A DNA stretch of 63,584 nt, counting the filler, from Collodictyon triciliatum (taxonomy: Eukaryota), in NCBI GenBank assembly GCA_043381765.1. It is 7 parts of 7 records of this genome, joined end to end, with 100 filler letters (N's around TTAATTAATTAA, not from the genome) between each part and the next. Parts side by side here need not be neighbours in the genome. Positions count along the whole stretch, not along the records: positions 19,967 to 26,305 come from JBHJMP010002872.1; 6 more parts are not named here. The stretch is one strand, 5' to 3'. Each line of letters begins with the position of its first letter. Position 1 is the stretch's first letter. A program made the translations under genes and the position numbers. The notes beneath the pieces were generated by a model, which worked only from the letters and a program-made list of their open reading frames with translations, had not been told where the DNA came from and did not search any database. Shown piece by piece: positions 19,999-25,808 of the stretch.

Positions 19999-22900
19999 AT
20001 GGCCTCGGCTCAAAAACCCAAAGGGCCGCCTCCTGCTCGTCCGATCGGCCCACCGCCGTCCGCACCCACCACAAACGAAGCGCCTTTGTCTGCAGCCGAT
20101 CATGGAACAAGCGCTATGCCTTTGTCGGCGACTGCTCCGGCAACACTATCGACCGCAGAAAATACAGAGAGCACAAAAGCGCCCCACTTCCGACTCTCTC
20201 TGGACTGGCGAATCCGATGCGGGACGGTGTGGTGGGTTTTCTAGTCTTGACTGCCTCTCCATCCCTCAAAGTTCTATGTTCTCTCCTTCTCTCCTTCATA
20301 TATGTATGTATGTATGTATGTATGTATGTATGTATGTATGTATGTATGTATGTATGTATGTATGTATGTATGTATGTATGTATGTATGTATGTATGTATG
20401 TATGTATGTATGTATGTATGTATGTATGATGATGTAGTATGTTGTATGTATGTATGTTGTATGTATGTATGTATGTATGTATGTATGTATGTATGTATGT
20501 ATGTATGTATGTATGTATGTATGTATGTATGTATGTATGTATGTATGTATGTATGTATGTATGTATGTATGTANGTATGTATGTATCTATCTATCTATCT
20601 ATCTATCTATCTATCTATCTATCTATCTATCTATCTATCTATCTATCTATCTATCTATCTATCTATCTATCTATCTATCTATCTATCTATCTATCTAATC
20701 ATATCTATCTATCTATCTATCTATCTATCTATCTATCTATCTATCTATCTATCTATCTATCTATCTATCTATCTATCTATCTATCTATCTATCATGCATA
20801 AATATTTCTATCGGCCTCATTCCATATTTCCTGTAGTCAGAAAAATATGTTGTGAAAGGAATAAATGGCCTAAATTTGTACACTTTCTTTCCGCCTTTTA
20901 TTTAACGAGTCTTGTGATGGACTTTAGATTCGCCTATATCGATTGGACGGAACATACCGAGCTTTCCGCATTGATGACTCGACAACGACGCGTGAGCTGA
21001 TTTATATGGCTGCAGAGCGGTTCTCTGTAGATATGGCCAACTGCAAAATATGCCTCATTCTGCGTTCTAAAATAGGTTCGATCGAGGGAATATTACATCG
21101 ATATTAATCTTTCCTCCTGTCATATTTCCATTTCTCATCTACAATAATATATCAGACATATTTTAGACTCCATCCAAGAGTAATCATATTCAACCATCTA
21201 CTCCCCAGACAAAAGAAGAGCCTTCACATCCCGTAACGATATTTCAAATTGATGAACGTATGTTTTTTCCCGTATATAAAGGTCCTATGGCGATGCAATC
21301 AAATCAGCGGAAAACGAACCAATTCACCGAATTCAGTCCAATACAGAACGATGAAAAGGTTTTGTGGCAAAAAGCAAAAAGCAAAAAAACAAAAAACAAA
21401 AAACAAAAAACAAAAAACAAAAAACAAAAAACAAAAAACAAAAAACAAAAAACAAAANNNNNNNNNNNNNNNNNNNNNNNNNNNNNNNNNNNNNNNNNNN
21501 NNNNNNNNNNNNNNNNNNNNNNNNNNNNNNNNNNNNNNNNNNNNNNNNNNNNNNNNNNNNNNNNNNNNNNNNNNNNNNNNNNNNNNNNNNNNNNNNNNNN
21601 NNNNNNNNNNNNNNNNNNNNNNNNNNNNNNNNNNNNNNNNNNNNNNNNNNNNNNNNNNNNNNNNNNNNNNNNNNNNNNNNNNNNNNNNNNNNNNNNNNNN
21701 NNNNNNNNNNNNNNNNNNNNNNNNNNNNNNNNNNNNNNNNNNNNNNNNNNNNNNNNNNNNNNNNNNNNNNNNNNNNNNNNNNNNNNNNNNNNNNNNNNNN
21801 NNNNNNNNNNNNNNNNNNNNNNNNNNNNNNNNNNNNNNNNNNNNNNNNNNNNNNNNNNNNNNNNNNNNNNNNNNNNNNNNNNNGTTGTTGTTGTTGTTGT
21901 TGTTGTTGTTGTTGTTGTTGTTGTTGTTGTTGTTGTTGTTGTTGTTGTTGTTGTTGTTGTTGTTGTTGTTATTATTATTATTGTTATTGTTGTTGTGGCG
22001 CAGATTCATCCACCGACAGCTCTCTATTTCGAATTGGGACATTTATCAAAGGGAAGCCAAAAGGAACAACAAAACCTGAGGCCAAGAAGCTAACGCATAC
22101 AACTTCGGTTGACATCATCCAAACCCTTATGTAGTTTTTTTTTAATACAAATACATAGATTAACAATTGATTTTATCATTTAATTAAAAACATTCTCCTG
22201 TTGTTTGATACTGTAATATTGCAATATGGCTTGATTAACATAAATAACTGGTGTAGAGATGATGACCCCAACCACCGGGTCTTGGTTTTAGTCGTTGCTG
22301 GAGAAGAAGCCGTATTTATAATCCGCAATTCATATGCATATAATTTTTTTTTTAATAGTATACTATGCTGACTTTCCCCACATATTCTGATCAGGAAATG
22401 AACAAACAAAAAGCCCTGGAAAACGTCCCATCCTCGCCGACCGGCCAGCGCCGTTTTGACCCAATCTCTAGGTTGTCTGGCCATATGGCTGCAATCATAC
22501 TTCCAAAGTCTGACAGTGCACCATCGGGCCAGGCAGAAAAAACCAAGGCTTCTTTAGACTCTGTAATGAAGAAAAATGAAATGTAGAAAAAAAAAGAAAT
22601 GTTCATGTAAATTCAAGAATTAAAAAAAATCTAATGATTTAATCTACCGTTCTTGATGAATTGTGGCACCGAAGCCAAAAGTTGGACAACAAAGACTATC
22701 GGCGAATACAAAGTATGACTTGCAAAAGTCCATTGAAGGAATAGCGAGATCAGAAGCTGCAGATATGAAGAATCCCGCTCGAAAAGTAACACATTTCATT
22801 TGCCTTGTTCTATATTTTCTTCATCTTCCAAACTTGCAAAAATTTGACACAGTTCTAATATGTAATTTGTAATATCTCGATTAGAAAAGCCTCACATTAA

Positions 22901-25808
22901 CTTTTTTTTATTTTACTTCGAGAACAGCCCATCCGTGTTTTCTACAATGGAGGCCATCATCGCTCAGCAGTGGCGGACTGCTTCTCATCAATATCTCTGC
23001 TAGTAGCACGAGCGGGAGAAAAATTAGGAGCGACATCAAGCGACGACTTGAAAGACTTTGCTGTGATTGAAATCATGGGTCGAAATATTGGTTTACTTAC
23101 TTTCAATATTTCTGAACATTATTACATCCATTCGCCCTTTCATTTCATGTTAAGAAAACAAAACCTTCTAAAATACCCCAAAAATGCAAATAATACATTT
23201 TTTTTTTAAAAAAAATCAATTAAATAAAAAAAAACAGCGAAATGAATACCCAAAACAACATATTTTTTTCTAATTAATAATAAACCACAGCACAATTTAA
23301 CTCTATGGAAAAGAAAGCTGCAAAATTAGAAGTTGATATCCAAGAGACAGAAAATCTTCTGATTGAAGTCAAAGTACAAATCCTGAATATTACGCTTGCC
23401 CATAAGTAGATAGTGATGTTGACTATACATATCAATATTTATTAAGTGTTTGCTTTCTCTCATGCCTCTAGAATGATCCGAAGCTCAGACAAGAGGCAGA
23501 AAAGCAGATGAATGCAGCAACAGAGAAAGTGATTGAGCAAAATTACTAAATGTTTTATGTCTGTGTGTGAAAATGTGTGTGTGCTATTTTTGCTTATATT
23601 TCTTCATTGACCCTAAATTAACATTATAATAACAATACCATTATTCATAAGGCGAACTCGATTCTAACCAGCATGCAAAAACACTTCCGTCGAGTTCTTA
23701 ACTCAGAATCTATCTTTCAAATCCTTGAGCGATGGGACAAAGGAGATTTTGCAGGGTTGGTTCCTAATTCCTATTTCTATTTAGTTATCTATATCTGGCT
23801 ATGCAGTTTTATTTGCTTTCATAAATTTCATATATTTATTCACCCTCATCATACTCATGAGCCAAATGAAGCAAAAAAACAACGAAAAAAAAGAAGGCCA
23901 CCCCCCTATTGAAAGTGCAGTTGCATCTCATGCTTCTCTTTTCTAGCCACGATATGTTTCTCCACGTGCATACTATTTCGATTTTAGTTTATCACTCACG
24001 TCTGTTATATGGCTAAGGAGGCGTGTCACATGGACCACAACCAAATCATTTCTACTAACGAGCTAATTTCCATTCTTGTACTCTGTAAAAAACCATTGAC
24101 TATTCAGGGTGGATAGAAAGAAGCCAAAAATCACCACCTTATCTGCTGATTATCCTGACATTGACAAAAAGCGTGCGCTATTCTACTGCATTAGCATATC
24201 CATGTTTAAAAGACTCCAAATGATGGAAGATGTAAGTAATCATATCAGTAAAACAAAACAAAACAAAACAAAAAAAAACAAAACAAAACAAAACAAAACA
24301 AAACCGCTTTAGGACCCAAATCCTGCATCACTCAGCGATTCGTCAGACGCACCATTTATGCGAGCCACTGACCGGCCACAGTCACAACCGCCACAGCCAT
24401 CATCACCCAGGGCACATGCAACCCCGACGCTGCCACCGCCTCCACCACCAACAATCCAACAACCAAAATCACAACCGCAATCGCAAACAACAGAGCCCCA
24501 CCCCCAACCAAAATCACAATCACAATCACAATCACAATCACAATCGCAATCGCAAACAACAGAGCCCCACCCCCAACCAAAATCACCAGATGCTGAGCAA
24601 ACTATCACACCATCACCACCAACAAACACAACGACAGCAGCCCCTCCTGCAATCACAACCGACACGCAATCACCAACGCAACTGCCATCACAATCCTCCT
24701 CGCCACCGCCTCCACCGCCACCTCCACCACCGCCTCCAGCAAACTTCAAGCCATCTGCGCCATCCGTGATTTCATCAAACAGCTCCGATGCCCCGCCTCC
24801 ACCTCCGCCTCCGCCACCGCCTCCAGCAAACTTCAAGCCATCTGCACCATCTGTGATTTCATCAAATAGCTCAAATGCCCCGCCTCCACCTCCGCCTCCG
24901 CCTCCCCCAATGGGTGGATTAAAATCCGCATCTGCGACGGGTTCCAATCCGCCGCCTCCGCCTCCACCTCCCCCAGGCACGCCCAAGGCAAACACCGTCC
25001 AACCAATTTCGTTGGCTGATGCACTTAAAAAGTATATTTACTCTGTTCTCACCTCATATGATAATTTCTCATCCTTTCATTCATCCATTTTTCTTTCTCT
25101 TTTTCTTACTTTTGGTAAAAAAAAAATAATAATAATAAATTAATACATGTTTTCTCGTTCTTCTGCATCCCCTTTTTTTTTTTAAACACCGACGCGACGC
25201 AGAGCCCCTCCTCTTCGCTCGGTCCAAGCAAATACAGGTTTATCTGTAATTCCCACATCACACCGCATCACAACACAACACATCATATTGCACGAAAAAG
25301 AATTTGATTGCCCCGATAATGATATTATTATCTGATGAAGATGGTTGCTTTGCAACCAAAGATGAAAATCGATTGGGTTTGCAGTTTATACCTCTGTGCT
25401 AACCAGCAATCCGCACAGACCCGGGCTCAAGGACAGAGTTGTTTGATGCGATTCGCCAGGGCCGTCAATTGAGAAAAGTGGAGCCTGTTGAGAAAGTAAT
25501 GTCCTTTTCCTCATGTCTTCATTCATTCATTTCTTTTGCGTGCGTGTTCACAAGTCCACCTTTTACTTTAAAAAACTACAAGACTCGTTGCGTGTAATGG
25601 AACAAAGAAAAAGTGATGTACATATATTTCATATACCCTTGGGCTCATTTCCGCTATTATTTCTATTTTGTTGACACGAAAGGTGGAGCAAAAAAGAGAA
25701 GACACAAACCGAGAAAGGTTGTTGAATGCGCTTCAAAGAATGCGGCGAAGCATCGAGAGTTCAGACGATGAGGACGGCGATGATTCTGACGACAGCGACT
25801 GGGACTGA
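19999..25808 (+). CDS. WASP/WAVE-type Arp2/3 nucleation-promoting factor (polyproline + WH2-WH2-C-A) with two Ras-association/ubiquitin-like domains, multi-exon
   Basis: C-terminus SLADALKKRAPPLRSV / RTELFDAIRQGRQLRKVE / RERLLNALQRMRRSI / ESSDDEDGDDSDDSDWD* is a WH2-WH2-central-acidic module with penultimate Trp. Polyproline exon 24313-25031. RA-like segments IRLYRLDGTYRAFRIDDSTTTRELIYMAAERF (20928-) and PIRVFYNGGHHRSAV...AGEKLG...DFAVIEI (22928-23090). 5' exon phases are imperfect and an N-gap lies inside the gene. Confidence 0.75.
20300..20793. repeat. Compound (TATG)n-(TATC)n intronic microsatellite
   Basis: Two adjacent tetranucleotide arrays. Confidence 0.95.
21884..21994. repeat. (GTT)n/(ATT)n microsatellite
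   Basis: Trinucleotide array next to an N gap. Confidence 0.93.

Follow-up and report, generated by a model that had tools for sequence, protein, structure and literature searches.

Gene structure and transcription

A small scaffold of Collodictyon triciliatum (JBHJMP010002872.1, assembly GCA_043381765.1) carries one expressed gene on the + strand. The scaffold occupies positions 19967-26305 of the 63,584 nucleotides of DNA that were analysed, which are referred to below as the window. The gene has at least 17 exons and encodes a protein of about 800-850 residues (Table 1). Two parts of the protein are of special interest: a domain of the Ras-association (RA) type near the N-terminus, called RA1 in the following, and a C-terminal WCA module (two WH2 motifs, a C helix and an acidic tail). 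An earlier note made from the sequence alone had described the locus as a candidate new class of Arp2/3 activator with tandem RA-like domains. Our own view leans, if only just, towards a lineage-specific nucleation-promoting factor of the WASP-family type, working by the mechanism proposed below.

Evidence for splicing came from read contigs of three public runs, X1 and X2 (one study) and X3, aligned over 20800-26200, a range that begins downstream of exon 1. The aligned contigs provided ten joints, nine of them of the GT..AG type, and one contig (X1 record 3) was continuous through 23652-23754, 24107-24231 and 24313-24496. Together the GT..AG joints and this contig define nine introns between 22785 and 25683. 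The ten exons delimited by RNA are all flanked by AG and GT and sum to 1611 nucleotides or 536 codons, with a single, terminal stop (TGA, 25806-25808); one frame is maintained over 22675-25808. Because spliced joints cannot arise from genomic DNA, the gene is transcribed and its transcript is processed. Alternative acceptors 12 bases apart (25407 and 25419) were seen in X1 and X2, the latter run using 25419; this acceptor costs the protein four residues, in frame, just ahead of the second WH2 motif. For the exons without RNA support, a junction-by-junction check found a GT-AG chain that keeps the frame. Nine GT..AG introns, one open frame and a relative that is collinear at 54-71% identity place the gene structure far beyond chance.

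Unspliced contigs were observed over three introns (21056-21341, 23142-23319 and 25468-25712); these could be pre-mRNA or carried-over DNA. A joint 24731>25782 in X3 (GC..AT, side 22) falls on a hexanucleotide repeat and was dropped as a cross-match. At 24420-24600 the summed contig depth was 2,270-9,427 in the three runs, on a hexanucleotide repeat coding for Gln-Ser, and looks like cross-matching of many unrelated contigs rather than expression.

The exon set differs from the one spliced by eye in the earlier note, which lacked 22000-22130, 22257-22311, 22395-22562, 22675-22785 and 24108-24231. That note had also placed the two halves of a second RA-like segment (RA2) side by side. RNA contigs insert exons 23291-23373 and 23472-23528 between them, adding 47 helical residues, and skipping these exons breaks the frame. 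As for the transcript, the RNA joints confirm 22785-25808, and the stretch from the N-terminus and RA1 to the RA2 region is connected through the relative described below.

The likely donor of exon 1 is GTGGGT at 20232. The 5' end of exon 22000-22130, which adjoins a (GTT)n repeat and the assembly gap, is uncertain, and for exon 22395-22562 an alternative acceptor at 22359 would also preserve the frame. Exon 22675-22785 has a 3' end backed by RNA and a putative 5' acceptor. The short exon 22257-22311 may provide the last strand of RA1 after a long insertion.

Table 1. Exons and other features of the scaffold, in window positions
Feature	Position	Strand	Content and support
Exon 1	19999-20231	+	Start codon, conserved N-terminal proline motif (KPKGPPPARP...), then Ser/Thr/Ala-rich stretch
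Exon 2	20928-21075	+	N-terminal two thirds of RA1 (strand, strand, helix, strand)
Exon 3	21282-21363	+	RA1 continued; the preceding 206 bases (21076-21281) are intron
Assembly gap	21458-21883	.	426 N within the scaffold; covers the counterpart of P0004 residues 224-259, about 36 codons
Linker exon	22000-22130	+	Conserved basic motif; tblastn to P0004 from residue 260; GT-AG chain, no RNA contig
Short exon	22257-22311	+	Conserved strand-like motif (DDDPNHRVLVLVV...); tblastn up to P0004 residue 319; GT-AG chain
Linker exon	22395-22562	+	Conserved motif (RRFDP..RLSG....LPKSD); tblastn to P0004 residues 318-365, 42% over 52
Exon ahead of RA2	22675-22785	+	Joint 22785>22928 (GT..AG, X1); tblastn to P0004 residues 382-428, 53% over 47
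RA2-like segment, first part	22928-23090	+	Joints 22785>22928 and 23090>23291; 65% identical to P0004 residues 428-482
Helical hairpin, two exons	23291-23373 + 23472-23528	+	47 residues; joints 23090>23291, 23373>23472 and 23528>23652
Exon with the second RA2 piece of the earlier note (FRRVLNSESIFQILERW...)	23652-23755	+	Joints 23528>23652 and 23755>24108; aligns to P0004 residues 530-564
41-codon exon	24108-24231	+	Between hairpin and proline-rich regions; X1 contig record 3; no Pfam match
Proline-rich exon	24313-25031	+	Five Pro runs; first half of WH2 number 1 at its end; joint 25031>25203 (X1, X2)
Mini-exon	25203-25237	+	Second half of WH2 number 1 (LKKV-type end); joints 25031>25203 and 25237>25407
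WH2 number 2 exon	25407-25495	+	Pfam WH2
Last coding exon	25683-25808	+	Basic stretch, amphipathic C helix, acidic Trp tail, stop; joint 25495>25683 (X1, X2)
3' untranslated region	25809-26114	+	X1 contig record 6, covering 25720-26114

The C-terminal module

Ahead of the stop codon the protein shows, in this order, proline runs, WH2 number 1, WH2 number 2, a basic stretch, an amphipathic helix, Arg-Arg and an acidic tail. WH2 number 2 (25409-25495) scored 30.2 bits with the Pfam WH2 model, whose cutoff is 23.1. WH2 number 1 is split by the intron 25032-25202 and can be aligned to WH2 number 2 without gaps, 6 of 14 residues being identical. The C helix (within 25683-25760) has Leu, Leu and Met at i, i+4 and i+7, followed by Arg-Arg. 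The passages on the C domain in Kollmar et al. 2012 (PMC3298513) give a pattern of hydrophobic residues spaced by three and then an Arg/Lys doublet. Half of the last 22 residues (11) are Asp or Glu, two are basic, and the second-last is Trp. The C-A exon had no match among the sequences of solved structures. The WCA tail with its proline-rich region, as claimed in the earlier note, is thus borne out in a frame supported by RNA. Proline runs were also correctly recognised there, though there are five of them and not four, with lengths of 6, 12, 11, 10 and 9 residues (24433-24450, 24703-24738, 24793-24825, 24880-24909 and 24949-24975). A unit consisting of a proline run and 16 identical downstream residues is present twice in exon 24313-25031.

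A relative in Diphylleia rotans

When the 49 residues encoded by the RA1 exon were compared with 1.84 billion representative proteins (phmmer, E<=0.001), three proteins were found. The sole true relative among them was P0001 (E 3e-9, 57% identity across all 49 residues); P0002 and P0003 are repeat proteins with short matching stretches only and were dropped. P0001 falls in one cluster with P0004; in EukProt both carry the label Diphylleia rotans (Collodictyonidae, CRuMs) and represent two Trinity isoforms. In tblastn P0004 was collinear with the scaffold over 20011-23755. Residues 2-41 correspond to 20011-20151 (61.7% over 47 columns), residues 131-147 to 20184-20234 in a different frame (70.6% over 17), RA1 to 20928-21074 and residues 196-223 to 21281-21364 (50% over 28). 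Residues 224-259 are without a match and correspond to the assembly gap. Further segments lie at 22000-22086, 22255-22308, 22392-22547 and 22660-22785, and from there the RNA-defined exons are followed to 23755. Identity is 54% over 76 residues for RA1 and 70.6% over 136 residues for RA2 together with the hairpin. Since P0004 passes directly from exon 20928-21075 to 21282, the sequence which the earlier note took for the second half of RA1 behind a 24-nucleotide mini-intron (about 21216-21262, 'IFQIDER') proves to be intron.

The relative has a single reading frame that runs from the N-terminal proline motif through RA1 and a long linker into the RA2 region. It therefore connects the proline motif and RA1 with RA2 and the hairpin, and the RNA joints connect the RA2 region with the WCA module, so that all of these belong to one gene. 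The tails of P0001 and P0004 are junk, differ from each other and set in precisely where exons of the window gene end (after 23528 and after 23755), which points to intron retention of the gene in D. rotans too. At 20152-20183 exon 1 changes frame with respect to the relative, and the window also lacks about 80 Ser/Thr-rich residues that P0004 has; the assembly may be wrong here, a low-complexity region may have collapsed, or the two species may truly differ.

Word-index protein searches with the RA2 and RA1 exons yielded 21 and 13 candidates, none of them scored; of 8000 candidates scored in a search of the same type with P0001, the only one retrieved was P0001 itself. Two metagenome scans with the RA-like exons revealed no relative.

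The N-terminal domains

RA1 of P0001 (residues 144-198) scored 25.4 bits with Pfam RA, above the cutoff of 21; with RA_2 P0001 scored 23.9 bits (cutoff 27). In the window, the RA1 exon (20928-21074) matched RA_3, RA_2 and RA at E 0.009-0.035, below the cutoffs, and Ufm1 was likewise sub-cutoff. The first match of this exon in the language-model Atlas was an RA cluster (0.95, 201 shared features). Among the sequences of solved structures RA1 matched talin F1 only, at chance level (E=1, 13 bits), and P0004 had one match (E=1.2). Judged by the Pfam threshold reached in the relative and the identity of the window to it, RA1 is an RA-type domain.

None of the known WASP-family heads could be recognised, in agreement with the earlier note. 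Over the 572 residues of P0001, Pfam at E<=10 reported only RA, RA_2 and Ufm1, with no WH1, CRIB, WASH (WAHD1), WAVE/SCAR (SHD) or WHAMM/JMY family, as far as Pfam has models for these heads. WH1 and CRIB-GBD did not match the window exons in Pfam either, and a CRIB-like motif was found neither in the window protein nor in the relative. No Cobl or FERM family appeared on the window RA1 exon or on P0001 (Pfam, E<=10).

RA2 behaved differently from RA1. On P0004 residues 428-564 RA_2 reached 21.1 bits (E 3.4e-4) against a cutoff of 27, and Pfam RA had an E of 0.11. The window RA2 exon was without a Pfam match; its Atlas matches were all beta-grasp families, with scores of at most 0.84. An hhalign comparison of RA1 with RA2 gave P 0.007 and a probability of 5%, and the sequences of solved structures gave a designed helical repeat for RA2 (E=2.1). 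P0004 residues 428-564 were modelled by AlphaFold with four window exon fragments as alignment rows. The best model (mean pLDDT 75.9; the other four 59-67) consists of three long helices without a single strand; pLDDT stays below 50 over its first 9 residues. A shallow alignment such as this favours helices, and the modelled segment lacks its last part, so RA2 is kept here as a candidate second RA domain. Of the two N-terminal segments in which the earlier note saw the RA pattern, RA1 counts as an RA domain by the Pfam cutoff that it passes in the relative. RA2 is sub-threshold and its sole usable model is all-helical, so that the term tandem is unproven.

No stretch is better conserved than the hairpin, which shares 35 of its 47 residues with P0004; its helices were modelled at pLDDT 80-92. 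Foldseek found no match to the helical model at E<=0.001. The best VIA-align hit had a Z of 9.3, within the range that is common for helical models (Z under about 13).

Predicted docking of the C helix

In WASP the GBD holds the C helix in the autoinhibited state. The hairpin, being the best-conserved stretch, was tested as the holder of the C helix in our protein. Complex prediction was performed with P0004 residues 428-564 and the window C-A exon, which mixes two species, together with three controls. The hairpin and C-A exon scored 0.62, the best control 0.00. This mark is reached by 51 of 78 solved complexes and by 2 of 108 mismatched pairs; among eukaryotes it is reached by 39 of 65 solved pairs without a like complex in older structures and by 2 of 126 unrelated pairs. 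At least 70% of contacts were common to the runs, and the partner pLDDT was at least 64. The predicted contacts fall on both hairpin helices (P0004 491-529) and, within the C-A exon, on the hydrophobic side of the C helix (residues 6-26). Of the 22 residues through which the hairpin makes contact, the window has 17 unchanged. The model suggests a WASP-like autoinhibition with the C helix on the hairpin.

Other features of the scaffold and the window

The window was put together from separate scaffolds, with N44-TTAATTAATTAA-N44 linkers at 9938, 19911, 26350, 36311, 46268 and 56217. Gene neighbourhood across the linkers is therefore meaningless, and the genes that flank ours in the window are not its physical neighbours. 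An extra TTAATTAATTAA without flanking N at 30708 may be natural. On the scaffold of the gene, intron 1 contains long (ATGT)n and (ATCT)n arrays (20300-20790), and the assembly gap is flanked by (CAAAAA)n and (GTT)n arrays (21385-21457 and 21884-21990). Comparable arrays occur on other scaffolds of the window.

The other scaffolds carry some recognisable coding sequences. A 754-codon open frame at 12006-14270 (+) encodes seven WD40 repeats (Pfam WD40, 235 bits), followed by a long Ser-Arg/Ser-Lys repeat and a C-terminal half without an assigned family. An exon for a CLASP N-terminal (TOG-like) domain (43.2 bits) lies at 18814-19284 (-), on the scaffold that precedes the one of our gene. At the edge of a scaffold, 46325-47107 (-) encodes part of a reverse transcriptase (RVT_1, 82.8 bits), probably from a non-LTR retroelement. 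A 574-codon Ser/Gln-rich open frame at 40540-42264 (+) showed no Pfam family at E<=0.001.

Proposed mechanism and rival explanations

From its N- to its C-terminus the protein would be composed of the conserved proline motif, the RA domain with a beta-grasp fold, a long disordered linker with three short conserved motifs, an RA-like segment fused to the helical hairpin, a 41-residue segment, the proline-rich region, two WH2 motifs, the C helix and the acidic Trp tail. According to the docking model, the C helix would be kept on the hairpin in the resting state. Recruitment of the protein might occur when the RA domain binds a GTP-loaded GTPase of the Ras family at the membrane. By analogy with the opening of WASP by Cdc42, this binding would probably free the C helix. 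The polyproline runs would supply profilin-actin and dock SH3 adaptors. The two WH2 motifs are expected to hold actin monomers, while the C helix and the acidic tail would bind and activate Arp2/3, giving rise to a branched filament. We infer the activation of Arp2/3 because the WCA module is sufficient for it in all known members. That the protein binds GTP-loaded Ras or Rap, and that it serves phagocytosis or macropinocytosis, as put forward in the earlier note, is conjecture. A bolder reading, conceivable but on the whole rather unlikely, is that an RA-type module with a hairpin replaces the CRIB-GBD. GTP-loaded Ras or Rap and not a Rho-family GTPase would then open the hairpin-clamped C helix, and Ras at the feeding groove or macropinocytic cup would directly trigger branched actin, with no relay through PI3K, a Rac-GEF or WAVE.

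A number of points weigh against the reading of the gene as such a nucleation-promoting factor. Several concern the transcript. The RNA nature of the runs is a guess only, although the spliced joints are impossible from DNA. The sole RNA contig over RA1 (X1, 21056-21341) is unspliced, and the link between RA1 and RA2 in Collodictyon rests on the relative and one gapped scaffold, not on RNA. Both isoforms of the relative stop in an apparent retained intron, short of any WCA tail. The tblastn alignment of P0004 reveals a break in the reading frame of exon 1 between 20152 and 20183. There are short A and C runs at this place in a draft assembly, and the simplest reading is a one-base assembly error. 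Other points concern the domains. The RA1 exon of the window itself, which holds two thirds of the domain, scores 15.2 bits, below the Pfam RA cutoff of 21; RA2 is sub-threshold and its model lacks strands, as described above. A single-sequence AlphaFold model of full-length P0004 was unusable (mean pLDDT 36.4). There are many RA domains that do not bind Ras. Agreement of the C helix with the C-domain pattern in the passages cited above is only partial, two of three hydrophobic positions being in the published register. Finally, the contact residues of the predicted complex are conserved no better than the rest of the hairpin (17 of 22 versus 18 of 25), and the packing of an amphipathic helix on a hairpin could be generic. 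The test behind the mark of 0.62 is calibrated neither for peptides nor for predicted chains, and the two chains came from two species.

Other explanations have to be considered. The protein might activate Arp2/3 while its RA-like beta-grasp domain or domains serve as scaffold or membrane modules, comparable to talin and kindlin F0-F1 or the ubiquitin-like part of Cordon-bleu, with control exerted by SH3 adaptors, lipids or phosphorylation. This is quite possible, if on the whole rather unlikely. It would agree with talin F1 as the sole solved-structure match of RA1 (E=1, 13 bits), with the Kindlin_2_N, FERM_f0, TUG-UBL1 and PB1 clusters among the Atlas matches of both exons, with the five polyproline runs and with the N-terminal proline motif, which is the most strongly conserved short element. 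However, RA is the best family and the sole one above its cutoff, the ten best family-bearing Atlas matches of RA1 all belong to the RA family or clan, and no FERM or Cobl family was found at E<=10. The conservation of the hairpin (35 of 47 residues) and its predicted role as holder of the C helix would also suit an antiparallel coiled-coil GTPase binder, HR1-like or bMERB-like, on which a Rho or Rab GTPase competes with the C helix, RA1 only targeting the protein. Row 46 of the Foldseek results was indeed the HR1b domain of PKN1 (rmsd 0.9 over 58 columns, E 1.3), and two VIA-align rows, 1 (Z 9.3) and 6 (Z 9.1), were bMERB domains that bind Rab. These resemblances in fold, however, are all within the range common for helical models, with none by Foldseek at E<=0.001, and Pfam gave no HR1 or bMERB match at E<=10. 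We regard this explanation as improbable.

It seems highly improbable that the protein is a WH2-based binder of actin monomers, or a nucleator, that works without Arp2/3 like Cordon-bleu or WIP and whose acidic end is incidental. An N-terminal ubiquitin-like domain or domains, a proline-rich region and two WH2 motifs do follow one another in the order seen in Cordon-bleu, but a basic stretch, an amphipathic helix and an acidic Trp tail come after WH2 in canonical order and spacing, and no Cobl family match was obtained. That the gene model is an artefact, or the gene is decaying, and that translation in the organism does not join the N-terminal exons to the WCA exons, is scarcely credible. The frame break at 20152-20183, the 426-N gap and the unspliced state of the only contig over 21056-21341 might be quoted for it. 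Yet all exons of the relative were found in order, on one strand of one scaffold, and further downstream 536 codons form an open frame whose splicing is visible in RNA. The frame break lies at short A and C runs of a draft assembly, and unspliced contigs also cover introns that are demonstrably spliced (23142-23319 and 25468-25712).

Returning to the WASP-family reading, the WH2, proline-rich and acidic Trp features were found, the C helix agreed in part with its published pattern, and the tests for the heads of every named subfamily were negative. The gene is therefore classed as a new subfamily-level variant of the WASP-family nucleation-promoting factors, known so far from two related protists, and not a categorically new class. 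The label of a new class given in the earlier note was too strong; a new N-terminal variant within the WASP-family type, as in the case of WAML or WAWH, is the better description.

Comparison with known systems

In the passages of Kollmar et al. 2012 (PMC3298513) that deal with classification, the WASP family's subfamilies (WASP, WAVE, WASH, WHAMM, WAWH and WAML) are defined by their N-terminal domains. The words 'Ras' and 'ubiquitin' do not occur in these passages, and passages of a later review (PMC10330494) contain nothing further on head domains. The open-access literature yielded no paper uniting an RA domain with WH2/VCA and nucleation-promoting factor (NPF)/WASP-family terms; the supplements of Kollmar et al., which possibly list unclassified WCA proteins, lay outside this search. 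Among the papers listed there, none appeared to concern actin regulators of Diphylleia either, judged by title and start of abstract; the spelling of 'Arp2/3' weakened a part of both searches.

WASP, N-WASP and WAWH share with the gene a proline-rich region, one or two WH2 motifs, the C helix and the acidic Trp tail, as well as a small GTPase-binding element upstream, for which RA is the candidate here. In autoinhibited WASP the C helix also lies on an upstream helical element, the GBD; here such docking is predicted. In contrast, WH1 and CRIB/GBD were not detected here, and the GTPase would be read by an RA-type beta-grasp, which as a type of domain is associated with Ras and Rap rather than with Cdc42 or Rac. 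WAWH is defined by its GBD in the cited survey passages. WHAMM and JMY resemble the gene in a helical, coiled-coil-like region between head and proline-rich region and in two WH2 motifs before C-A. They differ in that the gene has a short hairpin and not a long coiled coil, and gave no WHAMM-JMY or JMY family match. WH2 number 2 has a short linker here, whereas the WHAMM pattern in the survey passages has a linker of ten residues.

Cordon-bleu likewise combines N-terminal ubiquitin-like domain or domains and proline/basic motifs with C-terminal WH2 repeats. It has three WH2 motifs and is not known to have a C-A tail, whereas the gene has such a tail and no Cobl family match. Talin and kindlin F0-F1 and the MRL proteins (RIAM, lamellipodin) are beta-grasp domains that read Rap or Ras at membranes and are linked to actin assembly, and talin F1 aligns weakly with RA1. 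Unlike the gene, however, these proteins recruit other actin regulators and have no WCA module, and a FERM or PH domain was not found on P0001. Ras is not known to reach the established nucleation-promoting factors other than through intermediaries. If the proposed mechanism is true, RA and WCA in one natural protein would constitute a direct shortcut from Ras or Rap to branched actin.

A precedent for the arrangement is WAML (WASP and MIM like) of Entamoeba, in which, according to the survey passages, a proline-rich region and VCA stand under a different, otherwise well-known N-terminal domain. The head of WAML is IMD plus WAID, and that of the gene described here is RA plus a helical hairpin. 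CRuMs, the group of Diphylleia and its relatives, are a deep and little-sampled eukaryote lineage that is absent from the passages of the 2012 survey. The gene thus offers one more case for judging how frequently new regulatory heads have been joined to the WCA module.

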